64,000 nucleotides of DNA, taken from contig JBGSSA010000220.1 of the NCBI GenBank assembly GCA_041737295.1, forward strand, positions 32,170 to 96,169, in the 5' to 3' direction. The translations under genes and the position numbers were made by a program. How positions within the stretch are numbered: the stretch's first letter is position 1; each line of letters begins with the position of its first letter. Source of the stretch: Bacteroidales bacterium (GTDB taxonomy: Bacteria > Bacteroidota > Bacteroidia > Bacteroidales > UBA10428). Below the pieces are notes generated by a model. That model searched no databases. It had not been told where the DNA came from and saw only the letters and a list, made by a program, of their open reading frames with translations. Positions 39,497 to 58,295 of this stretch are shown in pieces.

Positions 39497-39560
39497 AATT
39501 TCTGTTAAATCCATTAGGGTATTTGAACCTTCGTTTGTTCATAAATAAACAATTTTGACG

Positions 39561-43700: not shown

Positions 43701-43960
43701 TATTTTCGAGCTATTACATTGAAAGTGGCTCATTCCTGAGATTAGAAAATGTCAACCTGGCTTATAATTTTGATCTGCGCAATACATTGGGCATCAATAA
43801 ATTCAGAATTTTTATCTCCGGGCAAAATTTATTCCTGATCACGAAATTTAAAGGTCTTGACCCGGAAGTTAATATGGATGGTCTTGCTCCGGGTGTGATG
43901 GACATCTATTACGTTCCCAAGTCAAGGACATTGTCCGCTGGCCTCGAAATCAGTTTTTAA
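40739..43960 (+). CDS. SusC-type TonB-dependent transporter with N-terminal STN signalling domain (trans-envelope signalling)
   Basis: STN-like N-terminal extension (VKNATIVEVFDKIEQVTEFGFLFKTDQFD...), carboxypeptidase-regulatory-like domain (LSGRVTDTTGVPLPGVTIVLKGTYNGTVTDSDGKYTL), plug (VLKDASATAIYGSRSASGVILITTKKGK) and barrel ending ...LSAGLEISF. Confidence 0.9.
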   Translation: MKKKLKFSDLHWSGTKKLLLVMKLTSFFIFFSVMANAASTYSQVTIFDLNVKNATIVEVFDKIEQVTEFGFLFKTDQFDLEKLYNLDIRNSNIEEILNEILQKDQYSYIILDRNIVIMKKSSGTLQDEKKITLSGRVTDTTGVPLPGVTIVLKGTYNGTVTDSDGKYTLNNIPLDGTIIFSYIGMNTQEIRVGGKSTLDIIMTESTIAIGEVVAIGYGSLSVRKVSGSITNVTAKDFNKGASQNAADLLQGRVAGLTITNPGGDVTTSQTIRLRGTSSLTGSSSPFVVIDGVPGLDINSVAPDDIESISVLKDASATAIYGSRSASGVILITTKKGKQGQTNVTYSNYVAADIATRTPEVLTAQQWRDYTASQNMDVSGLDKGANTNWFDEITRTGISQNHNLSISGGLKNGSYRASLNYLDREGVMIDNYLTRINGLISVNQKALKDKMDITLIAGTIQSDFQPNNTQNSVYAYNMLPVYPVKNPDGTYFDIQEWDQGNPVNNMENNSNLHKTSQLYTNAKVDLEIFKGFTAGINLFKQRRTEDVSVYNASTTAAGRQDHGYAERENMLWDKNLFETTAEYARTAGKQDFRILGGYSYEENLYQQLGASNRGFISDIFEYNNLSLGENLYPTDVNSYKSISKLISFFGRVNYSFDNKYIFTTTLRQDGSSKFGENHKWGLFPSASVAWRISDEEFMNNVNAVSDLKLRVGYGVVGNQDGIDPYQSLALYDRGSEYFDNGRWHNTYLYSQNNNPNLKWEQTATFNPGIDFGFIANRITGSIDYYIKKTTDLLYVYNVPVPPYLYSTMLANVGDMENKGYEVVINGDIMNKNDFRWTASVNFAHNKNVITRLSNESFQTDNIKTGNVSLRGSGYLTSSIIEEGQEVGTFYNLKCNGIDENGKFIIEDISKDGQINNDDYTYIGHAMPKLTYGILNSFSYKKIDFTFFFRGLYGNDVLNTPRIQYSNAKWLPGGNVLEEAITNGITDDPLFSSYYIESGSFLRLENVNLAYNFDLRNTLGINKFRIFISGQNLFLITKFKGLDPEVNMDGLAPGVMDIYYVPKSRTLSAGLEISF

Positions 43961-43978: not shown

Positions 43979-45529
43979 ATGAAGAAAATAAAATACAGTA
44001 TCATATTGGCAATTCTTATTGCAGCATTTTCAAATTCATGCACAGATCTTGACGAAACGGTTTACAGTGAGGTTCCGGTAGATAAGTTCGGAACGAATCA
44101 GGATCAGGTAAATGCGCTTGTAGGATCCATCTATAGTACACTCAAGGGTCATATAGAAAATTGGGATTCATACATTGTACTGGATGAACTTTCAGGAGAT
44201 ATGATGGCAATCCCGGGATTCAAAGGTGGAGACTGGGGAGAACCGATGTTCCGGCAGGCCATGCAGCATACCTGGAATTCTCAGAGCAGCGGATGGAACG
44301 GAGTCTATAATAATCCGAGCAGCGGAATCTCACTTTGTAACCAGACCATCTATATGATCGAAACTAATCCAGCCATTACAGATGAAGCCAAAGCAAGCAT
44401 TATTGCTGAAGTCAGGGGTGTTCGCGCATTCTGGTATTATACCCTGTGTGATCACTACGGAAATGTACCGATTGTCACTGACTTTCTGGATCAGACCCTA
44501 CTTCCGGCGACCAGGACCAGAAAAGAGGTTTACGAATTCATTATAAACGAGCTCAATGATATCAAAGATGAATTGAGAGACGATGTGGCTACTCCGGCAA
44601 GTTATGGTAAGTTCACGCAAGGTGCAGCATATACTTTACTGGCAAAAATGTACCTGAATGCCGAGGTCTGGAACCCTTCAGAAGGCGCAAAATGGCAGCA
44701 ATGTATCGAGGCTTGCGACAAGGTTATTGGTATGCCATACATTCTGGAGCCGAATTGGAAGACCAATTTTATCCCGAATAACGAAGTCTCGAAGGAAGCG
44801 ATATTATCCGGAGTTTTCAAAGCAGGTGGAAGTGGCCAGCAAAATGACATCGCCATCAATACGCTTCATTATCTCGATCCCATTGCACTCGGTTTAAGCA
44901 TTAGTCCCTGGAATGGTTTGGCCGCTAATCCTGACTATGTCAAATCATTTGACACGTTAGATGTCAGGTATAAGGGATCGTTTTTAATTGGACCGATGAT
45001 TGACCCGGCAACCAAGGAAGTTTTGATAACAGCACATGGTAGACCTCTGAACCATACAGTTGATATGGTTATGAATGAGGTGGATGAAACCGGCTGGGGC
45101 TGGATTAACCAGGAAGAAGGTGCCCGCATTGCTAAATGGGACTTTGCAGCCGGATTGAGCACCTCCATGGAAAATGACATTCATATTTTCCGACTGGCCG
45201 ATGTTTACCTGATGAAAGCTGAGGCATTGCTCCGCACCGGTGGAAGCGTGGCCGAAGCCACTGACCTGGTTAATAAAATTCGTGCCAGGGCATTGTCAGA
45301 TCCTGCAAAATTGCTTGATGCTGCTACGTTGAACGATATATACAAAGAACGCCGGTTTGAATTTGCATGGGAAGGATGCTCCCGGCAGGATATGATCCGA
45401 TTCGGAACATTTCTCTCCGCACGTCCACCTTTCAAACCATGGGAGAGTGATCCTAAATACTTATTATATGCTATTCCCCAGGAAGTTATTGATGCAAATT
45501 CAAACATCATACAAAACCCGGGATATTAG
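43979..45529 (+). CDS. SusD/RagB family lipoprotein
   Basis: Lipoprotein signal ILIAAFSNSCTD. It lies 18 nt after SusC. The C-terminal blocks ...ERRFEFAWEGCSRQDMIRFG... and ...NPGY are typical of the SusD family. Confidence 0.9.
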   Translation: MKKIKYSIILAILIAAFSNSCTDLDETVYSEVPVDKFGTNQDQVNALVGSIYSTLKGHIENWDSYIVLDELSGDMMAIPGFKGGDWGEPMFRQAMQHTWNSQSSGWNGVYNNPSSGISLCNQTIYMIETNPAITDEAKASIIAEVRGVRAFWYYTLCDHYGNVPIVTDFLDQTLLPATRTRKEVYEFIINELNDIKDELRDDVATPASYGKFTQGAAYTLLAKMYLNAEVWNPSEGAKWQQCIEACDKVIGMPYILEPNWKTNFIPNNEVSKEAILSGVFKAGGSGQQNDIAINTLHYLDPIALGLSISPWNGLAANPDYVKSFDTLDVRYKGSFLIGPMIDPATKEVLITAHGRPLNHTVDMVMNEVDETGWGWINQEEGARIAKWDFAAGLSTSMENDIHIFRLADVYLMKAEALLRTGGSVAEATDLVNKIRARALSDPAKLLDAATLNDIYKERRFEFAWEGCSRQDMIRFGTFLSARPPFKPWESDPKYLLYAIPQEVIDANSNIIQNPGY

Positions 45530-45547
45530 TATTTAAAAATCTATAAA

Positions 45548-46747
45548 ATGAAAAACTTATCACGAAGAAATTTCTTAGGAAACATGGGCACAATGGGTGC
45601 AGCAGCAGTAGTTGCGCCAACCTTAATGGCTTCTGCTTCAGTAACTCCACAACCGGAGGGTGGTTTTAAACCGTTCGGAAGAAAGGTGAAAGTTGGAATT
45701 ATCGGCTGCGGAAGCGTGATGAATGGCAATTATGCTCCTCATCTGGGGAAATGTCAATATGCCGAAATAGTGAGTTGCTGCGACATTAAACCAGATCGTG
45801 CTGAAAAAGCCGCAAAAACATTCAATATCCCCAATTGGTATCCACATATTGATAAAATGCTGGCTGGAGCTGAATTCGACTTGTTGGTAAATTGTACTGA
45901 CATGCAGGAACATGGCCGTCTGAACAAAATAGCTATTTTGGCCGGCAAATATGTTTGGAGCGAAAAACCAATGGCTACCACTTACAAGGAAGGACGTGAG
46001 CTTTTTGACTTGGCCATATCTATGGGAAAACATATCTGGGGTGCACCTGCCATGGTGAACAGTCCTCAGTTTGCTTTTATGGCGCGGCAACTTAATGCCG
46101 GTAAACTTGGCCGGGTTGCGGCAGCACATGCTCACTACGGACATCAGGGTCCGGAATGGTCTGCATTTTTCTATGAAGAAAATGGCGGTAGTATGCCGGA
46201 TTTAGGGGTATACAACATGGTTTCGCTTACAGGTTTGCTCGGACCAGCCAAATCAGTTATTGCCATGTTGAATATAATTACTCCAACCCGTAATGTGGAG
46301 GATAAAGGATTTATTCAGGTTAAAGCCGAAGATAATGCCCATATTCTGTTGGAGCATCAAAATGGCGTACTTTCACATGTTCAATGTGGTTTTAACTATT
46401 TCAATCCGGCAGGTCATTCAGGCCTGGGAGAGAACCGTCCCACAATTTCTATTGTCGGATCAGATGGAGCTTTAAATCTGGTTGGTTATGACTGGCATCC
46501 TCTGGGCGTAGAACTGGCTACAACATCCCATCCTGAAATTGAAACCTCTGTAACCGATTCGGGTACATTTGTATGGCAGGAAGGAGCTTCAGTGATTTGC
46601 GAACACCTTTCAACAGGCAAAGAATTGCTGATCACTTCAGAACATGCGCTGCACGTTTTGGAAATCATTGAAGGGGCTCGAAAATCGCAGGCTACAGGAC
46701 AACGGATTTCATTGCAGTCGGCATTTAAATGGCCGGTAGTTGTTTAA
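45548..46747 (+). CDS. Tat-exported Gfo/Idh/MocA family NAD(P)-dependent oxidoreductase
   Basis: Twin-arginine signal SRRNFLGNMGTMGAAAVVAPTLMASA. Rossmann start VKVGIIGCGSV. The family's conserved EKP block is present (VWSEKPMA). Confidence 0.8.
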   Translation: MKNLSRRNFLGNMGTMGAAAVVAPTLMASASVTPQPEGGFKPFGRKVKVGIIGCGSVMNGNYAPHLGKCQYAEIVSCCDIKPDRAEKAAKTFNIPNWYPHIDKMLAGAEFDLLVNCTDMQEHGRLNKIAILAGKYVWSEKPMATTYKEGRELFDLAISMGKHIWGAPAMVNSPQFAFMARQLNAGKLGRVAAAHAHYGHQGPEWSAFFYEENGGSMPDLGVYNMVSLTGLLGPAKSVIAMLNIITPTRNVEDKGFIQVKAEDNAHILLEHQNGVLSHVQCGFNYFNPAGHSGLGENRPTISIVGSDGALNLVGYDWHPLGVELATTSHPEIETSVTDSGTFVWQEGASVICEHLSTGKELLITSEHALHVLEIIEGARKSQATGQRISLQSAFKWPVVV

Positions 46748-46755
46748 GTTTAATA

Positions 46756-47943
46756 ATGGAATATATGGAAAAAATTGATCGAAAAAGTTTCCTTATCAAT
46801 TTAGGAACAATTGGTGCTGCCTCTGTTGTTGTACCATCAATATTTGCTTTTAATACTGAGTCCTCAGATTTTAAACCCTTTAACCGCAAGGTAAAGGTTG
46901 GTGTAATTGGTTGCGGAAGTGTTTCAAGAATGTATTTACCACATTTGTTAAATTGCCCGCATGCTGAAATTGTAAGTCTGTGTGACATTAAACCTGAAAG
47001 GGCAAAGAATAAGGCAGCCGAATTTAAAGTTGCCAACTGGTATCCTCATATCGATAAGATGCTGGCAGGTGTCCCTTTCGATCTGCTTGTTAACCTGACT
47101 GACATGCAGGAACATGGCCGATTAAACCGCATAGCGATAAATGCAGGGAAATATGTTTGGAGTGAAAAACCAATGGCCAATTCGTATAAGGAAGGCAAGG
47201 AATTGCTTGACCTTGCTTTTAGTAAGAATTTACGCATGTGGGGTGCCCCTGCAGTGGTTAACAGTCCACAATTTGCTTTTATGGCAAAACAGATCAATGC
47301 CGGTAAGCTGGGAATACTTTCAGCCGGACATGGGTGTTATGGGCACGAGGGACCAAACTGGTCGTCGTTTTTCTACGAAAAACTGGGTGGCAGCATGCCC
47401 GATTTGGGGGTTTACAACATTGCCACATTGGTTGGGCTTTTGGGCCCGGCTGTTTCAGTAACATCGATCCTTAATATTGTAAATCCTGCGCGTGAGATAG
47501 AAGATAAGGGTATTATAAAGGTTGAAGAGGAAGATAATGCCCATATCCTTCTGGAACATAAGAATGGAGCAATTTCTCATATTCAGTGTGGTTTCAATTA
47601 TGTGAATGCACATAGTTATGAGGGTGAAGAGGTTTCTACTTTATCTGTAATTGGATCAAAAGCTAAAATGGACATGATTGGTTATGACTGGTGGCCATTT
47701 GCTGTAGATATGGCAACTTCGGAGCATAGAAAATACGAACGCCTTTGCACTGAACGTGGAACCTACGTGTGGCAAGAAGGAGCATCAATAATATGTGAAT
47801 ATCTGACAACAGGTAAGGAGCCGTTAATTAACGCTGAGCATGCTTTGCATGTGCTCGAAATTATTGAGGCCGCAAGAGAATCAAACCAGTCCAGAAGGCG
47901 CATTGATTTGAAATCGTCATTTAAATGGCCGATTGTTGTGTAA
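46756..47943 (+). CDS. Gfo/Idh/MocA oxidoreductase, tandem paralog with an R-K variant Tat-like signal
   Basis: I chose the start at 46756 or 46765; the ORF-track start at 46729 overlaps the upstream gene. Signal region IDRKSFLINLGTIGAASVVVPSIFA. VKVGVIGCGSV and VWSEKPMA are present. It is collinear with and highly similar to 45548-46747. Confidence 0.8.
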   Translation: MEYMEKIDRKSFLINLGTIGAASVVVPSIFAFNTESSDFKPFNRKVKVGVIGCGSVSRMYLPHLLNCPHAEIVSLCDIKPERAKNKAAEFKVANWYPHIDKMLAGVPFDLLVNLTDMQEHGRLNRIAINAGKYVWSEKPMANSYKEGKELLDLAFSKNLRMWGAPAVVNSPQFAFMAKQINAGKLGILSAGHGCYGHEGPNWSSFFYEKLGGSMPDLGVYNIATLVGLLGPAVSVTSILNIVNPAREIEDKGIIKVEEEDNAHILLEHKNGAISHIQCGFNYVNAHSYEGEEVSTLSVIGSKAKMDMIGYDWWPFAVDMATSEHRKYERLCTERGTYVWQEGASIICEYLTTGKEPLINAEHALHVLEIIEAARESNQSRRRIDLKSSFKWPIVV

Positions 47944-47957
47944 TAAAATCATGAATG

Positions 47958-47990
47958 AAAAACCCTTCCTTTATCGTGGAAGGGTTTTTT
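47958..47990 (+). terminator. Intrinsic terminator after the oxidoreductase pair
   Basis: aaaaacccttcc (47958-47969) / tttatcgt / ggaagggttttt (47978-47989) is perfectly complementary, and the 3' arm runs into a T tract. It starts 15 nt after the stop at 47943. Confidence 0.75.
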
Positions 47991-48059
47991 GTACATTTAA
48001 AACTGAATCAAATAAAATCAATTTTATTATCCATCTTATTAAGTGTATTATTCTAAGAT

Positions 48060-49268
48060 ATGCAAGCTTCCATATCATTCATCCAATATTTAAATTCGAT
48101 AATATTTTCGCGGAATAATGCGCTTCGGGCTTCTTTTTTATTTGGTTTTGCCTGTCTTTCCTCGTGGATGCCGATGTTCAACTTATGGCTCGAATCAAAC
48201 GGATTAAGCGGGATTCAGATAGGTGTCATCGCTTCAATCCCATGGTTGCTGATGCTGGTCATTCAGCCGTTTTGGGGAATGCTTGCCGATAAATATGGCA
48301 AAATATTGTGTTTGAAAATAAGCCTGATTGGTGCCCTCCTGCTTTTTGTCCTTTTTCCATTTGTGAAATCAGGTGTTGCGCTTTTTGCAGGTATGACCAT
48401 AGCCCTTTCGCTTTTTAATACACCGGTCTTACCTTTTCTTGACAGCATTGCCCTCGATCATGTTGAGAGCAAACACATCAGATCATATAGTACCATCCGA
48501 TTCTGGGGGGCAATTGGTTATGCGCTTGGAGCTTCATTCACAGGCTGGCTGATTTCGCTGATTGGAGTTCAGGCTGCCTTCTTTTCGAGTGCGGGGTTTT
48601 TGCTGCTATGTTATCTGTCTGCCCTTAAAATTATTAATGTGAAGCTGGAAGCTAGTGCTATTGATGTTGAATTTAAGTACCTCGGAAAGATTATTTCAAA
48701 CAAAATTCTCCTGATCTTTTTGCTCATTATTGTGATTGTTTCCATTAGTCAGTCGGCCATTACTTTTTTTCTGGCTTTGTATATGAAACAAATCGGAGCC
48801 TCGTCCGAAACAACAGGCATGGCCATTGGGATGGAAGGGATCAGCGAATTGCCATTTTATTTTATCGCGGCCTGGTTGCTTCAGCGCATGGCTCCGGGAA
48901 AAGTGGTTTTTATAGCCATCATTGCTACCGCAGTCAGGCTGTTTCTGTATTCGATAAACAGCAATCCCGATCTGGTGATTTTTATAGAGGCCATGAATGG
49001 GCTGACATGGACACTTTTATGGGTATCTTCTGTGGAATTTGTGAATAGCCTGGTTCCGGCAAAATACAGAACTACAGGCCAGAGTATGCTTTGGGCTGCC
49101 TATTTTGGCGCAGGTGCGGTCCTGGGCAATATCCTGAGCGGTTGGATGTATCAGCTCATGCCAATGGATCAGGTTTATGCAACCCATGGATTGATTGTCC
49201 TTGTTATTGCAACAGTGGCCTTTTATATATTTTTCATCAGCAAAACAAATAAAATTGAAGCCACATGA
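48060..49268 (+). CDS. MFS transporter (LacY/nucleoside-H+ symporter-like, 12-TM)
   Basis: 402 aa with hydrophobic periodicity throughout and an MFS loop-type block, WGMLADKYGK. Its stop overlaps the next gene's start (ATGA at 49265-49268). Confidence 0.75.
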   Translation: MQASISFIQYLNSIIFSRNNALRASFLFGFACLSSWMPMFNLWLESNGLSGIQIGVIASIPWLLMLVIQPFWGMLADKYGKILCLKISLIGALLLFVLFPFVKSGVALFAGMTIALSLFNTPVLPFLDSIALDHVESKHIRSYSTIRFWGAIGYALGASFTGWLISLIGVQAAFFSSAGFLLLCYLSALKIINVKLEASAIDVEFKYLGKIISNKILLIFLLIIVIVSISQSAITFFLALYMKQIGASSETTGMAIGMEGISELPFYFIAAWLLQRMAPGKVVFIAIIATAVRLFLYSINSNPDLVIFIEAMNGLTWTLLWVSSVEFVNSLVPAKYRTTGQSMLWAAYFGAGAVLGNILSGWMYQLMPMDQVYATHGLIVLVIATVAFYIFFISKTNKIEAT

Positions 49269-50731
49269 TAAAACTTCTTTCTGATGGTACTGTAGATGAA
49301 ATGATTTCAACAGCATGCAAACTGGTCATTGAAAAAGGAATGTCAACCCGCAATTCAGAATTAATTGAAGCTGCCCGCAAAAATGAATCGCTTCAGGTAA
49401 AAGGAAACCGGATTTTTCCATCATCAGAAGCCCTGCAATCATGCCTGGTTCATATGAAACAGAATCGTATTTCAACAACTGATTATTACCGGCATCAGCA
49501 TGGCTGGCCAGATATGCTGATTGATCATCAGGTCACCAATGAATTGGTGGTCAAACTGACTGATTTGCCTTATCAGTATTGTGATCATCATGCACAGCAA
49601 ATAGTTCCCTTAACCCGCAGTCATGTGATTGAAGGAACAAAGCTGATGCAGGTTCTGTCGGCAAAACAAGACATAAAGGGTTACACTTGCGGGGTACCCC
49701 AGGATACCGCCGATCCGCTGAAAACCATCGAACAGTATTTGATCGGATTCCGGTATAATCAAAACGGCGGTGGAACCATTCAATCAGTTGCTGCCGAAGT
49801 TGAAACGGAATTCAACGAAATTTGCTGCATCGCGGAAGGTCGCGAAAACCTTCAGGATCGAAACCTGATGCTTTTTTCACCCAGTCCCATGATCCTGGAT
49901 GCTGACGATCTTTATCTTTGCTTCAAGCCCGGCATCAATCTCGGAAGTTTTATGGTCGGATCGATGCCAATGATGGGAATGACCGGACCCGTTGACCCGA
50001 TTGGTTCATACACACTTGGTATTGCTGAAGTGCTGGGTGCCGCAACCATCTTGCACGCGCTTTTCCCCCAAGCCAGGGCTTACATTTATCCGCATCCGCA
50101 AGCCATGGATTTGAAAACCGGACAAATGGCCTTTGGCACCATCGAGCATGCCCGTTTGGAAATGATGAAATTACAGGTCATGAAGGCCCTTGGTCTTCAG
50201 TATTATAACCTGAAAGACATCATGACATCGGCACAAATGCCCGGAAGCATGGCCCAGGGCGACAAGGCGCTGGGGTTTTATACCGGGTTCATGGCTGGCT
50301 ATAAAGCATTTAACCTGATGCCATTATCGACCGACCAGGTTTGGTCGCCGGTACAGGCATTACTGGATATCGAAGCGGTAAGATATGCATGGGCAGCTAC
50401 TCGTCCAATTAATAATCCTGAAGCAGTTTCCAATGCCTTTGGAACAATTTGCGAGGTGATCGATAATGATCAACTATTTGGTGAAACAATTGATACACTG
50501 ATGAATATGGATGTAAACTATGATATGAATTCGGTACACAAGCGGTTTTTTTCTTCAGAAGTATGGATAACAGGCGGCCGGAAAACTGAACTTGTTGCAG
50601 TAGAGGAAAAGTGCGCTGATCTCATTTCTGAATGGGATTATCATCCGGAACAAATGAAGCTGGAGAAAATTTTGAATATCTATAGCAGACTATGCAAAAA
50701 ATACAATACCGACCCAATCCGGTTGGATTAA
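49265..50731 (+). CDS. MttB-superfamily (trimethylamine/glycine-betaine methyltransferase-like TIM barrel) protein, non-pyrrolysine type
   Basis: The N-terminal pattern LSDGTVDEMISTACKLVIEKGM..ELIEAARKNE..VKGNRIFP and the central GSMPMMGMTGPVDPIGSYTLGIAEVLGAATILHALFP...AMDLKTGQMAFGTIEHARL match my recollection of the MTTB family profile. There is no in-frame TAG. This is a recall-based assignment that needs an HMM check. Confidence 0.5.
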   Translation: MIKLLSDGTVDEMISTACKLVIEKGMSTRNSELIEAARKNESLQVKGNRIFPSSEALQSCLVHMKQNRISTTDYYRHQHGWPDMLIDHQVTNELVVKLTDLPYQYCDHHAQQIVPLTRSHVIEGTKLMQVLSAKQDIKGYTCGVPQDTADPLKTIEQYLIGFRYNQNGGGTIQSVAAEVETEFNEICCIAEGRENLQDRNLMLFSPSPMILDADDLYLCFKPGINLGSFMVGSMPMMGMTGPVDPIGSYTLGIAEVLGAATILHALFPQARAYIYPHPQAMDLKTGQMAFGTIEHARLEMMKLQVMKALGLQYYNLKDIMTSAQMPGSMAQGDKALGFYTGFMAGYKAFNLMPLSTDQVWSPVQALLDIEAVRYAWAATRPINNPEAVSNAFGTICEVIDNDQLFGETIDTLMNMDVNYDMNSVHKRFFSSEVWITGGRKTELVAVEEKCADLISEWDYHPEQMKLEKILNIYSRLCKKYNTDPIRLD

Positions 50732-50741
50732 TCCTGAACCT

Positions 50742-51572
50742 ATGAGTTGTTACATTGGAATAGATTTAGGAGGCACTTCCATCAAAGGAGGACGCGTTGA
50801 ATCCGGTAAAATGATCAGAAATGAAGTTTTCCCGGTAAATCCGCAGGGAACCAGAGAAACCATCTTTAGCGATGTATGCAATTTGATCGGAAAGCTTTGG
50901 ACTGAGCAGGTAGAGGGGATCGGTTTTGCTGTTCCTGCACTAATTGACTTTGAGAGTGGAACGATATACGGTCTTTCGAACATTCATCAATTCAACGGAT
51001 TCGCCATTCGGAAAGCCCTTGAAACACAGTTTCCTGTTCAGGTGAGACTTCAAAATGATGCAAATTGTTTCGTGTTGGGCGAAATGCATTTCGGCGAGGC
51101 CAAAGGATATCGGGATGTTGTTGGTCTGATCACCGGAACCGGAACCGGGGCAGGTCTGATTATTGATGGTAAACTGCACAATGGCGAACACTTTGGAGCC
51201 GGAGAACTGGGTATGATTCCATACCTGGACGGTTGCTACGAAGACTATTGCAGCGGTCAATTCTTTACTTCCCATTATAAGGTTTCAGGAGAAGTAATGA
51301 CAGCACGCGCTAAAACCGGCGATGCTGAAGCGCTGGATGCTTTTAAAATTTATGGATTGCATCTTGGAAGTTTGATCAACCTGATATGCTATGTAATAGA
51401 TCCCCAGGTTATTGTTATCGGAGGCTCTGTGAGCAAATCGTTTGAATTGTATCAAACAGGACTTACAGAATCATTGAGAAAGTTTTACTTCGATAATCCG
51501 GATAAGGTGATCATTAAGCCATCCGTAAGCCTGGATATTGCCATTTATGGTGCTGTTAGTCTTTTCTTATGA
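50742..51572 (+). CDS. ROK-family sugar kinase
   Basis: N-terminal ATP-binding block YIGIDLGGTSIKGG, plus LQNDANCFVLGE and GTGTGAGLIIDGKL. It is shorter (276 aa) than classical ROK glucokinases, and I did not find the CxCGxxGC zinc motif. Confidence 0.8.
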   Translation: MSCYIGIDLGGTSIKGGRVESGKMIRNEVFPVNPQGTRETIFSDVCNLIGKLWTEQVEGIGFAVPALIDFESGTIYGLSNIHQFNGFAIRKALETQFPVQVRLQNDANCFVLGEMHFGEAKGYRDVVGLITGTGTGAGLIIDGKLHNGEHFGAGELGMIPYLDGCYEDYCSGQFFTSHYKVSGEVMTARAKTGDAEALDAFKIYGLHLGSLINLICYVIDPQVIVIGGSVSKSFELYQTGLTESLRKFYFDNPDKVIIKPSVSLDIAIYGAVSLFL

Positions 51573-51714
51573 ATAGATGGTAATGCGGTGTGAATTAATT
51601 CGATCAACTAACCATGAAGAGAATTTCAGTTGGAAAACCACGAAAACAAAAACTGGTTCTATTTGGAAAAGGTATGGACGGTTTCGAATTCTGTAAGACA
51701 AAAACATAAATAAT

Positions 51715-52758
51715 ATGACTAAATACTTTGAAGATATCCTCAAACAGCCAGTCCAGCTTCAACGCTCCCTGGATTATACCTTGAATGAAGGTTGGACTGA
51801 AATCGAAAAAGCGATCCGGTTAATCCGCCCGGCAAAAACAATTTATATTTCAAGCATAGGGGCCAGCCTGAATGCCGGATTGGCTATTCAGGCAACATTT
51901 AATGAGGCTGGGATGCCAACTCATTTATGTGATTCATCCGAATTCCTGCATTTTACAACTATTCCAGAAAAATCCGTTGTCATTCTTCTATCGCGCAGTG
52001 GTCAAAGTGTGGAGGTGGTAAAAGCAGTTTCGAAATGCAGAGATGCCGGTGCTAAAGTTATTTCAATAACCAACAGCGCCAACAGTGTTTTGGGACAGCA
52101 ATCGGATGTGTGTTTACTGACTCATGTTGATTTTGACCACAGCATTTCGGTGAATACCTACACTTCAATCATCCTTACCGGTCAGATACTGGCATCTGCT
52201 TTCAATTCATCCTTTTCGAAATCGGAAATTACCAAATCCCTTAAGCGAACTCTTAATCAGGTTATTCCTGAAATTCCCAAATGGAAAGATATCATTGATC
52301 AGTCGGATTGGCTGGATATGGATTATTCTAGCTATTTTCTTGCCCGGGGCGCTAATCTCTCTTCAGCATTTGAAAGCATGCTCATTTGGCAGGAAGGCGC
52401 AAAACAACCGGCTTCTGCTATGACAACCGGGGCATTCAGGCATGGTCCTCAGGAAGTACTGATCAACAAAATTAATATGGGTATATGGATAGATCAGGAA
52501 ATTGCCCGCGAAAACGATTTCAAATTAATAAACGATATGCATTCTCAGGGCATCAAGCTTTTAACGATTGGAAATAATCTACCGGCTGATTTAAAAGGAT
52601 TGAAAATTGAAATGCCCCAAATACTCAATTCGTTTCAACCTATAATAAATATCATACCAATACAGTTGGCGGTCGACCAGTTTGCCAGGATAAAGGGAGA
52701 AGATTGCGATAGTTTCCGGTTCTGCAACTTTGTGGTTGAATACGAAGGCGGACTCTAA
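51715..52758 (+). CDS. Double-SIS domain sugar-phosphate isomerase/deaminase (GlmS C-terminal / AgaS / FrlB / NagB-II type)
   Basis: 347 aa. First SIS block: IYISSIGASLNAG ... VVILLSRSGQSVEVV ... KVISITNSANSVL. The second half has a GPQE-type block (FRHGPQEVL). Confidence 0.8.
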   Translation: MTKYFEDILKQPVQLQRSLDYTLNEGWTEIEKAIRLIRPAKTIYISSIGASLNAGLAIQATFNEAGMPTHLCDSSEFLHFTTIPEKSVVILLSRSGQSVEVVKAVSKCRDAGAKVISITNSANSVLGQQSDVCLLTHVDFDHSISVNTYTSIILTGQILASAFNSSFSKSEITKSLKRTLNQVIPEIPKWKDIIDQSDWLDMDYSSYFLARGANLSSAFESMLIWQEGAKQPASAMTTGAFRHGPQEVLINKINMGIWIDQEIARENDFKLINDMHSQGIKLLTIGNNLPADLKGLKIEMPQILNSFQPIINIIPIQLAVDQFARIKGEDCDSFRFCNFVVEYEGGL

Positions 52759-53009
52759 GATTTAATTGAACCGGGCAGTTTCCTGTTGTACATAATTCCC
52801 TTATCACCCTTTATCCTTGCATTTTACAATATTCCCCTGCAATCAGTATAAATATATTGCAGTGGCAAATTGGACGAAATTGCCATGGGTATAAGACAAT
52901 TATCTTCCTATGCTTCATATGAACCTGTTATGTGAAACATCAATATCAGTCATTCAGCATTGTTAATGGTAAATTTGATATATGATAAATCCGTACCTAT
53001 AAATCATCC

Positions 53010-53066
53010 GAATTAAGAGTTGATATAGTATAAGTTGATAACATATTCTGTTTCAACTCTTAATTC
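53010..53066. repeat. Perfect 14-bp inverted repeat with a 29-nt loop in an AT-rich intergenic gap
   Basis: gaattaagagttga (53010-53023) and tcaactcttaattc (53053-53066) are exact reverse complements. The arm-loop junction region contains the direct repeat agttgata twice. Confidence 0.85.
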
Positions 53067-53238: not shown

Positions 53239-53267
53239 TCATTAAAAAACTTTAACCCGCTAACCCT

Positions 53268-54554
53268 ATGAGAAAAAAGATACTTTCTTTATTCACCATT
53301 GTCCTTTGGGCATGTTCAATACATTCGCAAACGGATACTGGATTACTTGTTTGTATTTCAAATAATGAATCCGGTTTACTCACAGCGAAAATTCAACTTG
53401 CCATTGACTCCTGTGCTTCGAAAGGCGGAGGAGTTGTCTATTTCCCCGAAGGCAGCTATTTAACGGGGGCCTTGCGGTTAAAAAGCAATGTCACGCTTCA
53501 TTTCGACAAAGGAGCGTTGCTACAGGGAAGCGATAACTACCTCGATTATGGCAAGGGTGAGTGGAAAAACGGCCTGATCACGGGTGATAGCCTGTTTAAT
53601 ATCACCCTTGAAGGAGAAGGCCTTATCAATGGTGTTAATTGCGTCAATCCCAATGGAGAGGAGGGTTTCCGCGGACCTCATTGTATAAGGCTGACAAATT
53701 GTAAGAATATTGTCATCCGGGGAATTACCATAATCAATTCAGCAAACTGGGCGATCAACTGCAGGTACTGCAGCGATGCAACCATTGAGCAGGTTTCAAT
53801 TCGGGGAGGACATGATGGTCTCCACACCCGGTTTTGCCAGAATTTTACTGTAAACCAATGCGATTTCCGCACCGGAGATGATGCGTTTGCCGGATGCGAC
53901 AACAGGGATTTTATCGTCTATGACTGCAAAATCAATACCTCATGCAACGGTTTCAGGTTCGGTTGCTTTAATTTCAACGTGAAAAATTGCCTTATCTGGG
54001 GACCTGGTGAATACAAGCACCGGATCAGCAACCGCACCAATATGCTGGCTGCCTTTGTGCATTTTTCACCTGGCGATGAAAATCCAAAGCAGGTAAGCGG
54101 AAACTGGCTCATTCAGGATGTAACCATCAAAAATGTGGATTGCGTTTACAATTATAACTTTGAAAACGGACTATGGCAAACAGGACAACCAGTGACCACC
54201 ATGATATTTGAGAATATAAAAGCTACGGGTATCCTCAATTCATTCAGCATTGCAGGTGATCAAAACAAAAGCCTGAGACTGATCATTAAAAACGCTGATT
54301 TTTCATTCCGGGAAGGATCTGAGGAATATTTACCCGTTTTTGAGGGTAGAAAAGCCCGTTCATTGGCGTTCTTCAATATGTATAACTTTGATACCCTTGA
54401 ATTGCATCATGTTATTTTTCACCACCATGGAACATTACCGGTTTTGGAATGCAATTCAGGCAACGAGGCATGGTTTGATCAGGTAACCTTTTTGCCTGAT
54501 CCTCAATCACAGCCATTCCTGTTGGAAAATGTACTGAAAATCAGGAATGATTAA
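53268..54554 (+). CDS. Right-handed beta-helix protein, GH28-like (non-canonical); paralog of 5315-6577
   Basis: Signal MRKKILSLFTIVLWACSIHSQ. It has the same motif series as its paralog: NPNGEEGFRGPHCIRL, NSANWAINCRYC, GGHDGLHTRFC, RTGDDAFAG, SCNGFRFG, LWQTGQPVT. Confidence 0.6.
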   Translation: MRKKILSLFTIVLWACSIHSQTDTGLLVCISNNESGLLTAKIQLAIDSCASKGGGVVYFPEGSYLTGALRLKSNVTLHFDKGALLQGSDNYLDYGKGEWKNGLITGDSLFNITLEGEGLINGVNCVNPNGEEGFRGPHCIRLTNCKNIVIRGITIINSANWAINCRYCSDATIEQVSIRGGHDGLHTRFCQNFTVNQCDFRTGDDAFAGCDNRDFIVYDCKINTSCNGFRFGCFNFNVKNCLIWGPGEYKHRISNRTNMLAAFVHFSPGDENPKQVSGNWLIQDVTIKNVDCVYNYNFENGLWQTGQPVTTMIFENIKATGILNSFSIAGDQNKSLRLIIKNADFSFREGSEEYLPVFEGRKARSLAFFNMYNFDTLELHHVIFHHHGTLPVLECNSGNEAWFDQVTFLPDPQSQPFLLENVLKIRND

Positions 54555-54556
54555 TC

Positions 54557-55924
54557 ATGAAAACACCAACGCGAATCCTGGTTGTTTTACTTATTGGCCT
54601 GGTTTTTCCTTTTTCGGTCAAGGCCTTTCAGTTAAACCAATTTTCTGTCACAAACTTCGGCGCCGAGGCCGACGGTATTACCGATAATACAAATGCCTTC
54701 CGGCAGGCCATCAGGGCAGCATCGGCGTCAGGGGGAACCGTGTTTGTACCCGCGGGGAAATATTTGATCAGAGGAAGCCTGCATCTCGAAGGGGTCTCCC
54801 TCCAGGGAGAAAACCTGGCTCCCCGATCCTGGGAACCCCTGAACGGAACGATCATACTGGCAACGGGGGGCAGGGATAATGAAAAGGCAGGGGCCTTGTT
54901 CGAGATGCGCAATTCCTCCGCCGTTTCAGGAATTACGGTATATTACCCGGAACAGAATGTGGATACGATCCACGCCTATCCATGGACTTTTCATATCGGG
55001 AGTTATTCACCTGACTCAACCGTATTCGATTGCACCATTGAGAATGTTACCCTTATCAACAGTTACAATGGCATCCATGCCGGACCTAATGAAAATGGGA
55101 GGCACCGAATTAATAGTGTATTCGGATGTGTTTTAAGAAGGGGCATATTCGTTGAAAGTGTGGGCGACATCGGCAGGATTGAAAATGTACAGTTTCATTG
55201 TCATTTCTGGGCAAGCCCGGCTACAAACGGCGATTTTCGCAAAGTGTTCCAATATATGCAGGCAAACTGTGAAGCATTCATCCTGGGACGAAGCGACTGG
55301 GAATACCTGACCAACACTTTTGTATTCCCGGCAAAGATCGGGTATCATTTTATCCACACTGAAAACGGCAATTGGAGCGGCTCCTGTAACGGACAATTCA
55401 GCGGCATTGCAGCCGATGCCACTGAGACCTGCATTGTGGCGGAGTCCATCCAGTCGCAGGGATTGCTGATTACCAATGGGCAGTTTAATTCCCACCTGGC
55501 CGGGCGAAGCACCCAAATTTTAGTGGAAAAGGATTGCGAGGGTAGCATCCGGTTTACCAACTGCGGATTTTGGGGACCCGTAAAACAGAATGTTCACATC
55601 CTGGGAAACTCCTACGTGTCTTTTATGAATTGCTATTTTTCAAGCAACCATGTGTCAAAGGACCCAGATGACCCTGACTGGTCGATCATTGCAGAAAACG
55701 GGAAATTGCAGGTGCAGTCCTGCACATTTGATGGTACGCAAACCGATGAAGTGAAACAGTGGACTTATGCGGGAGAAAAACGCCGGCCTGAAAGCATATG
55801 GCTGAAAAAAGATGTAAAAAGCGCAATCATCACCGGCAATAACGGATTCAACGGGATATCTGTAAAAAATGAAATCGGCAGTAGGGCATATCTGTCTGGA
55901 AATGAACCTAATAGTAATAAATAA
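54557..55924 (+). CDS. Secreted pectate-lyase-superfamily (Pectate_lyase_3 / GH55-like beta-helix) protein
   Basis: Signal peptide, then FGAEADGITDNTNAFRQAIRAASASGGTVFVPAGKYLIRGSL, the characteristic N-terminal block of this beta-helix family. Confidence 0.6.
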   Translation: MKTPTRILVVLLIGLVFPFSVKAFQLNQFSVTNFGAEADGITDNTNAFRQAIRAASASGGTVFVPAGKYLIRGSLHLEGVSLQGENLAPRSWEPLNGTIILATGGRDNEKAGALFEMRNSSAVSGITVYYPEQNVDTIHAYPWTFHIGSYSPDSTVFDCTIENVTLINSYNGIHAGPNENGRHRINSVFGCVLRRGIFVESVGDIGRIENVQFHCHFWASPATNGDFRKVFQYMQANCEAFILGRSDWEYLTNTFVFPAKIGYHFIHTENGNWSGSCNGQFSGIAADATETCIVAESIQSQGLLITNGQFNSHLAGRSTQILVEKDCEGSIRFTNCGFWGPVKQNVHILGNSYVSFMNCYFSSNHVSKDPDDPDWSIIAENGKLQVQSCTFDGTQTDEVKQWTYAGEKRRPESIWLKKDVKSAIITGNNGFNGISVKNEIGSRAYLSGNEPNSNK

Positions 55925-55938
55925 TCCAATAATATATA

Positions 55939-56958
55939 ATGAAATTACTCATCATCGGTGGAACAGGAAACATCAGTACAGGAATCACAAAAATGATGCA
56001 GGGTAAAGGCCATGATATTACCCTTTTTAATAATGACACCCGGCGGCCCGACTGGCTGTTGCAAGAGGTTAATGTCGTTTGCGGCAACAGAAACGAACTC
56101 GACAAGTATGAAGCCGGACTTTTTGCTTCGGGATCTTATGATTGTGTAATGGATATGATATGTTTTGAACCGAAAGATGCTGCAATAGATATCAGTCTGT
56201 TTAAAAACAGGACAAAACAGTTTATTTTCTGCAGTACGGTGGATGTTTATCCTAAAACAGGATCAGGCTATCCCATAAACGAAGATACGGTTATTGGCGC
56301 CCTGCCTTCTTTTCCTTATGCATACAAAAAGGTTGAATGTGAAAAACTGCTATGGGAGGCACACAGAAAAAAATATTTCAGCCTGACTGTCATTCGTCCG
56401 GCCGCTACTTATAATGAATCATGGAGTCCCGGTGTACATACCTTCGGGGGGCAAACCTATCATCTTCACCGGTTGCTTCATGGCAAACCCTTCATTTTGC
56501 ACGGGGATGGCAATTCAATATGGACAGCTGCCCACAGGGACGATACGGCAAAGGCCTTTACCGGCGCCGCAGGCAACGAAAAAGCCTATGGACAGGCCTA
56601 CAATGCCAATGGCGACGAAATGTACACAATGAAGAAAATGTGGCGCACTATTGCCATAATTCTCAATGCCCCCGAGCCGGATTTCATCTATATTCCCACG
56701 AACCTGCTATATAAAATGGCCCCGGCGGAATCTGAGTGGTGCCGTGAAAACTTTATGCACAATAACATCTTCGACAATTCCAAAGCCAAATCTGACCTGG
56801 GCTTTAAATATACCATACCCTTTGAGAAAGGTGCTAAAATGAGCTGTGATTATTTAATCCTCCATAACCTGGTTGAGGACTCGGGTAATTATCCGTTCTA
56901 TGAGGCAATTATAGAACAATGGCGCAGCCTGCAAGAAAGCCTGCATAAAATCAACTGA
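55939..56958 (+). CDS. NAD-dependent epimerase/dehydratase family (extended SDR) protein, cytoplasmic
   Basis: MKLLIIGGTGNISTGI is a Rossmann GxxGxxG. A YxxxK candidate (YAYKKVECEK) is present. 339 aa, no signal peptide. Confidence 0.75.
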   Translation: MKLLIIGGTGNISTGITKMMQGKGHDITLFNNDTRRPDWLLQEVNVVCGNRNELDKYEAGLFASGSYDCVMDMICFEPKDAAIDISLFKNRTKQFIFCSTVDVYPKTGSGYPINEDTVIGALPSFPYAYKKVECEKLLWEAHRKKYFSLTVIRPAATYNESWSPGVHTFGGQTYHLHRLLHGKPFILHGDGNSIWTAAHRDDTAKAFTGAAGNEKAYGQAYNANGDEMYTMKKMWRTIAIILNAPEPDFIYIPTNLLYKMAPAESEWCRENFMHNNIFDNSKAKSDLGFKYTIPFEKGAKMSCDYLILHNLVEDSGNYPFYEAIIEQWRSLQESLHKIN

Positions 56959-56970
56959 TTGATCGGTAAT

Positions 56971-58293
56971 ATGAATAATCAGACATTGAAGCTGAAGGTA
57001 TCTGACAATGGACATTTTCTCCAATACGAAAATGGATGCCCTTTTTTCTACCTGGCAGACACGGCTTGGGAACTGTTTCACAGGTTAACCCTGGAGGAAA
57101 TTGAGTTCTACCTGGAAACCAGGAAAGAACAGGGATACAATGTTATTCAATGTGTTCTCATCAGTGAATTGGATGGATTGAGAACCGGAAATGCATACGG
57201 ACAGATTCCGTTTATGGATGAAGATCCCTCGAGGCCAAATCCTGATTATTTTGATTTTATTCACAAAGTGCTCAGTTTAGCGCAGTCGTGCGGGATATTC
57301 ATGGCTTTGGTCCCGACCTGGGGGGATAAAATTGATAAAGTATTTGGCATTGGACCTGAAATATTTAATGAGACCAATGCTTTTGCTTATGGAAAATGGC
57401 TCGGAAAAAATTTCAATGAGGTACCTAACCTAATATGGATGAATGGGGGCGATCGTTCGGGTGCGGGACGAAATTATGCCGTGTGGGATGCACTGGGCGA
57501 AGGCATTAAATCGGGAGATCCCGGTCACCTGATGACGTTTCATCCCTGGGGTGAGGCAAGCAGTTCCATGTGGTTCCATGATGCAGGGTGGCTCGACTTT
57601 AACAGCTGCCAGAGTGGTCATTCCATGCGCAATTATCCGAATTACATGATGATTGCCTTTGATTACCTTCGACAGCCTGCAAAACCATGTATTGATGCAG
57701 AACCCCGATATGAGGCGCATGCCGTAAACTGGAAACCGGAAGAAAATGGAGTTTTTGATGAGTACGATGCCCGACAGGCTGCCTATTGGAGCGTATTTGC
57801 AGGTGCCTGCGGTCATACATACGGCGCACATCCGGTATGGCAGATGGCTGATATAAAGTGCGATCCCGTTGGATTTGTCAAACTTACCTGGAAAGAGGCC
57901 CTCACCCTTCCCGGGGCCTCACAATTGATCCATCTCAAAAACCTGCTCCTGTCGCGCCCCTATTCCGAACGGGTTCCCGATCAGAGCCTGCTTACATCAC
58001 CCAGGGTTGGCGATGAGCACATTTGCGCCACGCGCGGCGAAAATTACATCCTGGCCTATTTGCCCCGGGGAGGAACTGTTGAAATAAATGCATCCGGGAT
58101 CAGCCAATGGCAGGTAAATGCCTGGTGGTTCAATCCGCGCAACGGGGCTTCTGAATTTATCGGGAAAACAGATAACCATTCTTTGCTGAATTTTACATCA
58201 CCGTCATCAGGCAGGAATTTTGACTGGGTACTTGTGCTGGATGATCCTGAAAGCCGGTTCAATATTCCCGGTAAAACGTTGAGAAATCCCTAG
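56971..58293 (+). CDS. DUF4038 / GH140-like glycoside hydrolase with C-terminal collagen-binding-like domain; no signal peptide
   Basis: I chose the ATG at 56971; the ORF track uses a TTG at 56959. Blocks: NGCPFFYLADTAWELFHRLTLEEIEFYLETRKEQGYNVIQ, WMNGGDR, and the C-terminal AWWFNPRNGASEFIG. The N-terminus MNNQTLKLKVSDNGHF has no hydrophobic leader. Confidence 0.65.
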   Translation: MNNQTLKLKVSDNGHFLQYENGCPFFYLADTAWELFHRLTLEEIEFYLETRKEQGYNVIQCVLISELDGLRTGNAYGQIPFMDEDPSRPNPDYFDFIHKVLSLAQSCGIFMALVPTWGDKIDKVFGIGPEIFNETNAFAYGKWLGKNFNEVPNLIWMNGGDRSGAGRNYAVWDALGEGIKSGDPGHLMTFHPWGEASSSMWFHDAGWLDFNSCQSGHSMRNYPNYMMIAFDYLRQPAKPCIDAEPRYEAHAVNWKPEENGVFDEYDARQAAYWSVFAGACGHTYGAHPVWQMADIKCDPVGFVKLTWKEALTLPGASQLIHLKNLLLSRPYSERVPDQSLLTSPRVGDEHICATRGENYILAYLPRGGTVEINASGISQWQVNAWWFNPRNGASEFIGKTDNHSLLNFTSPSSGRNFDWVLVLDDPESRFNIPGKTLRNP

Positions 58294-58295
58294 CT

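Follow-up and report, generated by a model that had tools for sequence, protein, structure and literature searches.

The window analysed here is the whole 64,000-nucleotide stretch of contig JBGSSA010000220.1 (positions 32,170 to 96,169) from the assembly of a Bacteroidales bacterium (GCA_041737295.1). It contains, at window positions 49265–50731, an open reading frame for a 488 amino acid (aa) protein of the MttB superfamily, which is of the non-pyrrolysine type and is situated in a sugar-utilisation locus. From its sequence, its predicted fold and the operons of its orthologues, the protein is held with moderate confidence to be the substrate-specific methyltransferase (MT1) of a B12-dependent demethylation of an imported methylated sugar, the product of which would then be phosphorylated and deaminated or isomerised. 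An earlier note, made from the letters of the window alone, had described this gene as an orphan within a cassette of a sugar transporter, a ROK kinase and a double-SIS enzyme. All four open reading frames, with their positions, and both protein sequence blocks quoted in that note are present. The observation is confirmed, and the interpretation offered with it is partly supported. The features of the locus are as follows, in window coordinates.

38909..39496, + strand: ECF sigma factor, regulator of the locus (Pfam Sigma70_r2/r4_2/ECF)
39555..40544, + strand: FecR-type anti-sigma factor (Pfam FecR and FecR_C)
40739..43960, + strand: SusC-type TonB-dependent transporter (CarboxypepD_reg/Plug/TonB_dep_Rec domains called in the identical locus L028)
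43979..45529, + strand: SusD-family glycan-binding lipoprotein (SusD-like_3/SusD_RagB in the identical locus L028)
45548..46747, + strand: GFO/IDH/MocA sugar oxidoreductase 1, periplasmic (Pfam GFO_IDH_MocA and C-terminal domains)
46729..47943, + strand: GFO/IDH/MocA sugar oxidoreductase 2, a paralogue of oxidoreductase 1 (Pfam)
48060..49268, + strand: LacY-type MFS permease, 402 aa (MFS_1_like 205 bits, LacY_symp 60 bits)
49265..50731, + strand: non-pyrrolysine MttB-superfamily protein, 488 aa, predicted substrate:corrinoid methyltransferase (MT1) (PF06253 48 bits, fold match)
50742..51572, + strand: ROK-family sugar kinase, 276 aa (Pfam ROK 152 bits)
51614..51709, + strand: relic of a NirB-like FAD reductase, 32 codons (tblastn to the N-terminus of the L012 reductase)
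51715..52758, + strand: double-SIS enzyme, 347 aa, like the GlmS isomerase domain, predicted hexosamine-6-phosphate deaminase/isomerase (or deglycase)
53268..62883, + strand: downstream glycan-degradation genes of the same locus (Pfam)

With a SusC/SusD pair, an ECF sigma/FecR regulator, and GH28-like and GH140-like genes, all on one strand, the locus has the make-up of a polysaccharide-utilisation locus (PUL). The layout is kept in the compared loci L013, L014, L017, L020, L029 and L030. The position of the ECF sigma gene is retained in L014, L017, L020, L029 and L030, the FecR-type gene is syntenic in orthologous loci, SusC (open reading frame cluster c7) is common to L013, L014, L017 and L020, and SusD (cluster c6) is syntenic across the compared loci. 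The ECF-controlled SusC/SusD pair that the earlier note saw upstream of the cassette is thus found, together with its FecR gene, and the ROK and double-SIS genes follow the MttB-like gene as described, which agrees with the amino-sugar flavour attributed to the cassette. The extent of the cassette stands for the four genes, but the two GFO/IDH/MocA genes (45548–47943), which had been left outside, belong to the conserved unit as well. The stop codon of the permease and the start codon of the MttB-like gene do overlap as ATGA at 49265–49268, an arrangement indicative of translational coupling.

The 488 aa protein matches the profile PF06253 over residues 3–457 (profile positions 32–475 of 500) with an E-value = 5e-13 and 48.3 bits, where the gathering cut-off is 25. 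An AlphaFold2 model, for which 56 relatives were used, shows a pLDDT of 92.6 and a pTM of 0.90. A Foldseek search with this model matched the solved structures of MttB (7xcl), MtgB (9yce/2qne) and 4yyc with TM scores of 0.74–0.80 and E-values of 1e-20 to 1e-22, and the next-best family, MtmB, reached a TM score of only 0.44. No sugar-isomerase or lyase-type TIM barrel was found near the model in that search (D-allulose epimerase, TM 0.12–0.15). The sequence identity to solved superfamily members is only about 15%. On the profile match and the predicted structure together, the assignment to the MttB superfamily is considered secure; the superfamily identity and the structural likeness to MtgB and MttB proposed before are both borne out, and no better TIM-barrel family was found.

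The open reading frame is uninterrupted, with no in-frame stop, and M320 is found at the position of pyrrolysine 334 (Pyl334), thus the protein is of the non-pyrrolysine type, as had been proposed. The position is Met or Leu in 52 of 52 clade members. The equivalog model for pyrrolysine-type MttB, TIGR02369, gives 35.8 bits against a cut-off of 525. No N-terminal signal sequence is recognisable in the translation. A HMMER search of 1.84 billion representative sequences yielded 23 hits at E ≤ 1e-30 and 307 at E ≤ 1e-3. All 78 relatives (90% cluster level) carry PF06253 and none has a functional name. Among the close relatives Bacteroidota (Prolixibacteraceae, Bacteroidales) predominate, the distant ones come from Phycisphaeraceae and Chloroflexi, and the 17 loci of the clade in the genome collection all come from uncultured metagenome-assembled genomes. 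Judged by these searches, the MttB-like clade has few members and stands well apart from the conventional MttB family.

In MtgB, residues Y97 and F356 are the cation-pi partners of the trimethylammonium group, and R312 and H348 are carboxylate ligands, with R312 kept in all characterised non-pyrrolysine members (PMC13080624). Residues were mapped by a profile alignment to 9yce and 7xcl and by a 166-sequence bridging alignment, and the two are mutually consistent. Both alignments place N315 at the position of R312, N350 at H348 and D357 at F356; D357 is Asp in 52 of 52 clade members. Y97 corresponds to L101, but a Tyr is found two residues on, so this position is less certain. As far as the alignments can tell, the glycine betaine-binding residues of MtgB are not kept in the 488 aa protein. 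Of 40 superfamily-conserved columns, defined over 99 conventional members, 26 are kept. The columns shared with both solved enzymes are all kept (P208, G238, P242, A254, E255, D282, G291, E294, G345, S361, D368, T411 and W434), as are the superfamily motifs tested: SxxMxGxxxP, AEVL, the D282/E294 region and D368/S361/T411. The clade also has invariant polar residues of its own, R118, E156, E191, D244, H277, R297, S322 and Q331, at positions that are small or hydrophobic in conventional members. The pattern is read as a catalytic scaffold that is retained around a pocket that is new and more polar, which would fit a sugar-like cationic substrate and not a carboxylate betaine.

Neighbourhoods were counted over 17 non-redundant loci of the sugar-linked clade, whose MttB-like proteins show 36–100% identity to the window protein. 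Open reading frames were called and clustered in the compared loci and combined with precomputed Pfam calls. Among members with at least 60% identity the gene order is ECF sigma, FecR, SusC, SusD, GFO (one or two copies), LacY-type MFS permease, MttB-like gene, ROK kinase, and SIS or PF01182 enzyme. A LacY-type MFS gene adjoins the MttB-like gene or is one gene off in 14 of the 17 loci, and a transporter of any kind is present in 16. Sugar kinases are found in 11 loci (ROK 8, PfkB 2, Khk 1), and an NAD-dependent sugar oxidoreductase (GFO, BT2158-like) or a GH4 gene in 14. A hexosamine-6-phosphate deaminase-type enzyme is present in 13 loci, SIS in 7 and a PF01182 AgaI-type protein in 6, never both.

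Hexosamine-6-phosphates are known to be deaminated by two unrelated kinds of enzyme, the SIS type and the AgaI/NagB type. Since the two are mutually exclusive across the loci, there is good evidence, from gene content, that the predicted pathway ends in hexosamine-6-phosphate deamination. The AgaI-type proteins score 296–308 bits with the galactosamine-6-P isomerase model, which has a cut-off of 271. The SIS enzyme of the window scores 108 bits with GlmS NF001484 (residues 7–333), 56 with GlmD and 46 with NagB-II, all under the respective cut-offs, and its nearest PDB entries are GlmS isomerase domains, the GlcN-6-P deaminase 1j5x and the deglycase 3eua. For the ROK kinase the top NCBIfam models are glucokinase and N-acetylglucosamine kinase, both also under their cut-offs. 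No NagA/AgaA deacetylase is found in the window cassette. The linkage to sugar genes holds at 36–41% identity. In L004 and L021 the MttB-like gene is accompanied by a GH4 gene nearest to 6-phospho-beta-glucosidases, in L010 by GH4, a sodium:solute symporter and GFO, and in L006, which is outside Bacteroidota, it is situated among CUT1 sugar ABC transporters.

Two further observations concern other members. In L003 (14000–21400) the SusC/SusD genes downstream of the MttB-like cassette are split into many short open reading frames, which reflects either decay of the locus or frameshift errors of long reads. Distant MttB-like proteins (30–34% identity) also occur near URO-D genes, on the P0078 contig and in L008 (15041–16102). 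The P0078 contig encodes a Pel9A/GH141-like beta-helix protein with an MTTB paralogue on either side, and this type may represent another glycan-linked MttB lineage.

The earlier note saw neither a corrinoid protein nor a partner methyltransferase in the 64 kb, and this is upheld. A Pfam scan of the window shows no B12-binding, pterin-binding, URO-D or MetH-activation domain in any open reading frame of at least 150 aa. Six-frame tblastn with the corrinoid, URO-D and activation proteins of L020, and a search for the corrinoid motif DxHxxG...SxL...GG, also gave nothing in the window. The tblastn with URO-D also missed the divergent URO-D of L008, and the absence of URO-D from the window rests on the Pfam scans. 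Genes are densely packed in the window, the largest gap being no more than about 520 bp, which leaves no room for a missed partner gene.

The word orphan holds for the window locus but not for its orthologues. In L020, L029 and L030, MttB-like proteins with 59–62% identity to the window protein are encoded in operons that also contain corrinoid, Met_synt_B12 and URO-D genes. In L020 (61% identity) the genes are on one strand with gaps of 0–15 bp, in the order ECF sigma, corrinoid protein, Met_synt_B12, URO-D, PfkB, SIS, MFS, MttB-like, FecR, SusC, SusD and GFO. The 216 aa corrinoid protein carries PF02607 and PF02310, scores 214 bits with the MtgC model and displays the canonical DxHxxG...SxL...GG motif. 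The 221 aa Met_synt_B12 protein is similar to the MetH reactivation domain, and the 339 aa URO-D protein scores 188 bits, and 140 bits with the MtaA/CmuA family. L030 and L029 share this arrangement, L029 without PfkB. L030 and L020 are 98.8% identical in DNA sequence and represent one species. L029 has no megablast-level similarity to L020 and is from a different species, with a corrinoid protein that is 81% identical. Among the best 120 of 8000 matches, further contigs hold corrinoid proteins 78–87% identical to that of L020. The three MttB-like proteins group with the window protein at the orthologue level and share all its invariant residues. Because the sugar kinase, the SIS enzyme and the permease lie between the corrinoid and MttB-like genes, the methyl-transfer and sugar genes appear to form one pathway. 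The URO-D enzyme could work on the acceptor side as the second methyltransferase (MT2), with a thiol as a possible methyl acceptor, or could be another enzyme of the donor side.

L020 (QAKH01000118.1) is labelled as a Clostridiales metagenome-assembled genome, yet it carries SusC/SusD and a Bacteroidota-type ECF sigma/FecR pair, and the L030 contig to which it is almost identical comes from an independent sample. The taxonomic label is probably a binning error.

A role of the fold independent of corrinoids was one of the two readings in the earlier note. In the window and most other loci the MttB-like barrel would then act on the imported sugar, e.g. as an isomerase, lyase or hydratase whose step follows those of the NAD-dependent oxidoreductases or GH4, or by methyl transfer to an acceptor other than a corrinoid. 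Such a role fits the 14 of 17 loci in which no corrinoid gene is nearby, and also the GFO, BT2158-like or GH4 redox enzymes which, besides the transporter, are the most constant partners (14 of 17). Genes similar to 3-keto-disaccharide hydrolases in the neighbourhoods, and the remodelling of the pocket with many clade-specific polar residues, are consistent with it as well. However, a complete corrinoid set shares the operon with orthologues that are about 60% identical and carry the same invariant residues, the superfamily residues shared with MttB and MtgB are kept, and Foldseek showed no likeness to sugar isomerase or lyase barrels. Cobalamin dependence is common to all family members characterised so far (PMC13080624, PMC12478193). 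In Ruegeria pomeroyi the mtgB genes are unlinked from mtgC and mtgD and the system is still cobalamin-dependent (PMC12478193). In other Bacteroidota, free-standing modules of corrinoid, Met_synt_B12, URO-D and AraC genes are found (L031 6916–10351, GCA_031548435.1; L032 8001–10346). Because of the free-standing modules and the split system of R. pomeroyi, a missing neighbour is weak evidence for corrinoid independence, and by analogy unlinked partners are plausible for the window protein. Weakened by the partner-linked orthologues and by this precedent, a corrinoid-independent role is considered unlikely.

The corrinoid protein of the free-standing L032 module has an NCBI name that derives from Gallalistipes aquisgranensis, and 109 blocks of the collection list it; the literature searched contains no description of what modules of the L031/L032 type do. 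In the conventional Chloroflexi loci L025 and L026, which served as controls, MTTB paralogues are situated beside a corrinoid protein, and L025 also contains a dimethylglycine-dehydrogenase-like gene.

A second demethylase family is found in some of the orthologous loci. Between the ROK and SIS genes of L012 and L014 there are two further genes, one for a NirB-like FAD reductase that has a BFD [2Fe-2S] domain and one for a Rieske oxygenase. The oxygenase is nearest to GbcA, a subunit of glycine betaine monooxygenase, with 353 bits (the next family gives 109 bits), a score that is under the GbcA equivalog cut-off of 670. The corresponding ROK–SIS gap of the window is 142 bp and contains a 32-codon open reading frame at 51614–51709, MKRISVGKPRKQKLVLFGKGMDGFEFCKTKT followed by a stop. 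It matches the N-terminus of the L012 reductase at 64% over 28 aa (tblastn, E-value = 2e-5), and its dinucleotide-binding GxGxxG motif is degraded. L017 carries a relic of the C-terminus of the Rieske oxygenase at 15357–15440. Since the window and L017 keep relics where L012 and L014 have an intact pair, the segment 51614–51709 is interpreted as a deletion scar in a lineage that once had the oxygen-dependent demethylase pair and then lost it. One sugar operon thus appears to combine two enzyme families that are known, from their characterised members, as N-demethylases of methylated amines.

The Rieske oxygenase bears on the substrate. It resembles a glycine betaine monooxygenase, and the MttB family is known to act only on small methylamines and quaternary amines (PMC13080624, PMC12155760). 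The substrate could then be a small non-sugar quaternary amine, such as choline or a non-carboxylate betaine, which is released from a decorated glycan or merely co-regulated, with the sugar genes as mere neighbours. A substrate that has no carboxylate would also agree with the absence of the Arg and His that bind this group in MtgB. The gene context argues against this. In the tightly packed operons of L020, L029 and L030 the sugar kinase (but no PfkB in L029), the SIS enzyme and the permease sit between the corrinoid and MttB-like genes, and the coupled transporter is LacY-type, not a BCCT or ABC betaine-type. The sugar linkage persists in the members of 36–41% identity and, with the CUT1 sugar ABC systems, outside Bacteroidota. 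Unlike the conventional Chloroflexi locus L025, these loci show no downstream genes of the dimethylglycine/sarcosine type. A small amine is therefore judged improbable as the substrate. A conventional betaine system, which the earlier note had considered as another outcome, does not fit either: the partners are present in 3 of the 17 loci, where they are interleaved with sugar genes, and the betaine-binding residues are absent.

The preferred reading, B12-dependent demethylation of an imported methylated sugar, may be set out as a series of steps. The SusC/SusD pair, whose genes are present under the ECF sigma/anti-sigma pair, would take up an oligosaccharide. The periplasmic TAT-exported GFO/IDH/MocA oxidoreductases and the glycosidases would release from it a methylated sugar or small glycoside, and the LacY-type permease, as its adjacency and start/stop overlap suggest, would import this sugar. 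The MttB-like enzyme would bind the sugar in the pocket of its TIM barrel, and a corrinoid protein in the Co(I) state would receive the methyl group. This transfer is predicted because of the fold, the retained scaffold residues, and the orthologues that are operonic with corrinoid, MetH-activation-like and MtaA-type proteins. The ROK kinase would then phosphorylate the demethylated hexosamine, from which the SIS enzyme would make a ketose-6-phosphate and an amine, as the family assignments and the non-orthologous displacement between SIS and AgaI suggest. The alternative, oxygen-dependent route by way of the Rieske pair would have been lost by deletion in the window lineage.

An N-methylated, possibly quaternary, hexosamine is the favoured substrate because the chemistry of both MttB and GbcA is N-demethylation, because the downstream enzymes are of the deaminase type, and because an acidic residue appears to replace the cation-pi Phe. 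The demethylation of a methylated sugar or amino sugar was the other reading of the earlier note, and it gains support from the corrinoid-operonic orthologues in the same PUL layout and from the retained scaffold residues. It is a more specific claim, put forward tentatively and rather doubtful, that methylated amino sugars have in this clade their first cobalamin-dependent demethylases.

Several points weigh against a B12-dependent sugar demethylation. The corrinoid module is found in only 3 of the 17 loci, from at least two species, and the window and most orthologous loci have none within 10–50 kb, so the corrinoid protein and second methyltransferase are assumed to be encoded outside the window in the source genome. 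Where partners are present (L020, L029, L030), the methyltransferase is URO-D-type and not the pterin-binding type of characterised bacterial MttB-family systems; no PF00809 pterin-binding protein is found in any examined locus. An Rfam search shows no cobalamin riboswitch in the window, L020, L029, L030 or L012. The SIS and ROK assignments are both under curated equivalog cut-offs. The distant sugar-linked loci L006, L010 and L021 have no kinase or deaminase nearby, and the amino-sugar end of the pathway is thus not universal in the clade. We know of no abundant natural glycan with an N-methylated hexosamine.

The downstream genes of the locus (53268–62883) encode a GH28-like beta-helix protein, a pectate-lyase-like protein, an NAD epimerase, a GH140-like protein, a second MFS protein and a large GH140-like protein. 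Orthologues of these, 46–70% identical, flank MttB-like genes in L010, L021 and L004. GH140-, GH141-, GH127- and GH28-like families are best known from the degradation of rhamnogalacturonan-II, which contains O-methyl sugars. The presence of such genes in the window locus and its relatives raises the possibility of a B12-dependent O-demethylation, with an O-methyl sugar as the substrate of the protein, e.g. one of the 2-O-methyl-fucose or 2-O-methyl-xylose types of complex pectins, in place of the oxygen-dependent P450 route that is known for 6-O-methyl-galactose. Sugars that carry methyl ethers cannot be catabolised until a dedicated demethylase has acted (PMC6292453), and the URO-D-type partners belong to a family used by O-demethylases (PMC10418091, discussion). 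On the other side, no MttB-family enzyme is known to cleave methyl ethers. A Cys/His cluster is expected for the Lewis-acid activation of a methyl ether, but no conserved cluster for such a site is found in the clade, in which H277 and C477 are the only conserved His and Cys. Both the GbcA-like oxygenase and the enzymes of the deaminase type (SIS, or AgaI above its cut-off) speak for an amine. An O-demethylase is rated as unlikely, and an N-methylated hexosamine is retained as the favoured substrate.

Oxidoreductase 1 displays a clear twin-arginine signal (SRRNFL; TIGR01409 TAT signal). Its nearest solved structures in a PDB search are the DgpA glycoside C3-oxidoreductases 7xr9/9m3d, and its identity to the corresponding proteins is 93% in L017 and 58–59% in L029, L030 and L010. 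The nearest structure to oxidoreductase 2 is also DgpA 7xr9, and L013 also has a second GFO copy. The best PDB matches of the GFO proteins are DgpA C3-oxidoreductases and glucose-fructose oxidoreductase. An identity as GH109 NAD-dependent alpha-N-acetylgalactosaminidases was rejected, no GH109 PDB match being found at E ≤ 1e-5. The idea that the MttB-like barrel takes the place of the missing lyase of a 3-keto-glycoside pathway was also rejected as the leading explanation, given the lack of a signal sequence, the lack of likeness to a xylose-isomerase-like fold, and the corrinoid-linked orthologues.

Genes to the left of the locus (13–9066 and 23784–38386), 11–49 kb from the MttB-like gene, have orthologues of 46–70% identity in L004 and L021. 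There they directly flank the GH4-type MttB-like genes and encode a carbamoyltransferase, 752, 826 and 1173 aa proteins, a GH28-like protein and GH92. Because the orthologues of these far-left genes flank the MttB-like gene in both loci, the entire window appears to serve one complex glycan and looks like one regulon. The carbamoyltransferase (13–1791, NodU/CmcH-type, PF02543 and PF16861) is 68–70% identical in L004 and L021. It is a biosynthetic-type enzyme and unusual inside a degradation locus; it might work backwards and strip carbamoyl groups from sugars, a hint of a carbamoylated target glycan. The 752, 826 and 1173 aa proteins (3046–5304, 6586–9066 and 34865–38386) show no Pfam match, have 46–69% identity to proteins beside MttB-like genes in L004 and L021, and are candidates for undescribed carbohydrate-active enzyme families. 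Several proteins encoded at 9094–18746 and 31163–34861 combine a type IX secretion sorting domain with CBM9, Big_2, DUF362 or PA14 domains. A hybrid two-component regulator with AraC output (26454–30872) is a second regulatory layer beside the ECF sigma factor. A scan of 38400–53400 for sigma-70 promoters and terminators gave counts equal to those of shuffled controls, Bacteroidota promoters being outside the coverage of the scan.

The literature searched contains no MttB-family protein in a polysaccharide-utilisation or amino-sugar context and no corrinoid-dependent demethylation of a sugar; the earlier note knew of no description of either of its two readings. The only carbohydrate demethylase described there is the oxygen-dependent P450 that acts on 6-O-methyl-galactose (PMC6292453). 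If the clade does hold demethylases of methylated amino sugars, Bacteroidota and some other phyla would strip N-methyl groups from hexosamines onto a corrinoid protein, from which the methyl groups might go on to methionine or to a thiol acceptor. Sediments and wastewater would then contain enough of an unrecognised glycan, one rich in N-methylated (possibly quaternary) hexosamine, to sustain dedicated loci, and the clade would point to a methylated component of natural glycans. B12-dependent methyl transfer would be extended into carbohydrate catabolism, anaerobes would have an oxygen-free means to remove methyl groups that block sugar metabolism, and Bacteroidota would have a new reason to compete for cobamides.

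Among known systems, MtgB/MtgC/MtgA of Desulfitobacterium hafniense (PDB 2qne, 9yce; PMC13080624) shares the superfamily and the fold with the window protein (TM 0.78–0.80). MtgB is likewise a non-pyrrolysine protein with a hydrophobic residue at the Pyl position, the conserved scaffold residues are shared, and MtgC models give the best likeness for the corrinoid protein of the orthologous operons (214 bits). However, the identity to MtgB is about 15% and none of Y97, R312, H348 and F356 is kept. The partner in the orthologues is URO-D/MtaA-type and not a pterin-binding tetrahydrofolate methyltransferase, and the window gene is found in a SusC/SusD sugar-catabolic locus with no partner in the window.

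MttB/MttC/MtbA of Methanosarcina barkeri (PDB 7xcl, 7xcn; PMC9842639) also shares the fold (TM 0.78, E-value = 3e-22). The architecture of MT1, corrinoid protein and URO-D-family MT2 in Methanosarcina resembles that of the L020-type operon. The window protein differs in having M320 in place of pyrrolysine (about 36 bits with TIGR02369 against 525). Its host is bacterial and not a methanogen, so coenzyme M is an unlikely acceptor, and the reactivation partner of the L020-type operon is similar to the MetH activation domain and not to a RamA-type activase.

The split MtgBCD(E) systems of R. pomeroyi and other marine bacteria (PMC12478193), with cobalamin-dependent MT1 genes unlinked from the corrinoid protein and second methyltransferase, are a precedent for an MttB gene that looks like an orphan. 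In R. pomeroyi the methyl flux is tied to methionine synthesis modules (PMC12478193). These systems differ in their substrate, glycine betaine, in their pterin-binding acceptor module MtgD, in their Proteobacteria hosts, and in having no carbohydrate context.

Type 1 mlp clusters (PMC10418091) contain a corrinoid protein and an MtaA-like URO-D protein with no tetrahydrofolate methyltransferase, and are similar in make-up to the modules of L020, L029, L030, L031 and L032. They differ in being mostly from Firmicutes, in using Ram/RACE activases, and in lacking an MttB-family protein. They were proposed for methyl-sulfur and methyl-selenium compounds, and their description makes no mention of sugars or Bacteroidota (PMC10418091).

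Among oxygen-dependent systems, GbcAB and related Rieske N-demethylases have their counterpart in the GbcA-like oxygenase of L012 and L014, which suggests an oxygen-dependent route to the same demethylation. In contrast to GbcAB, the reductase there is NirB-like with a BFD [2Fe-2S] domain and the pair is situated between the sugar kinase and the SIS gene. The P450 demethylase of 6-O-methyl-D-galactose in porphyran loci of marine Bacteroidota (PMC6292453) follows the same logic as the one proposed here, in that a dedicated demethylase inside a PUL unblocks the catabolism of a sugar. It is unrelated, oxygen-dependent and releases formaldehyde, whereas the MttB-like enzyme would be oxygen-independent and the methyl group would be kept on cobalamin. 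The window protein has a known fold and, most probably, a known chemistry, and what would be new is the class of substrate and the pathway in which it is found.

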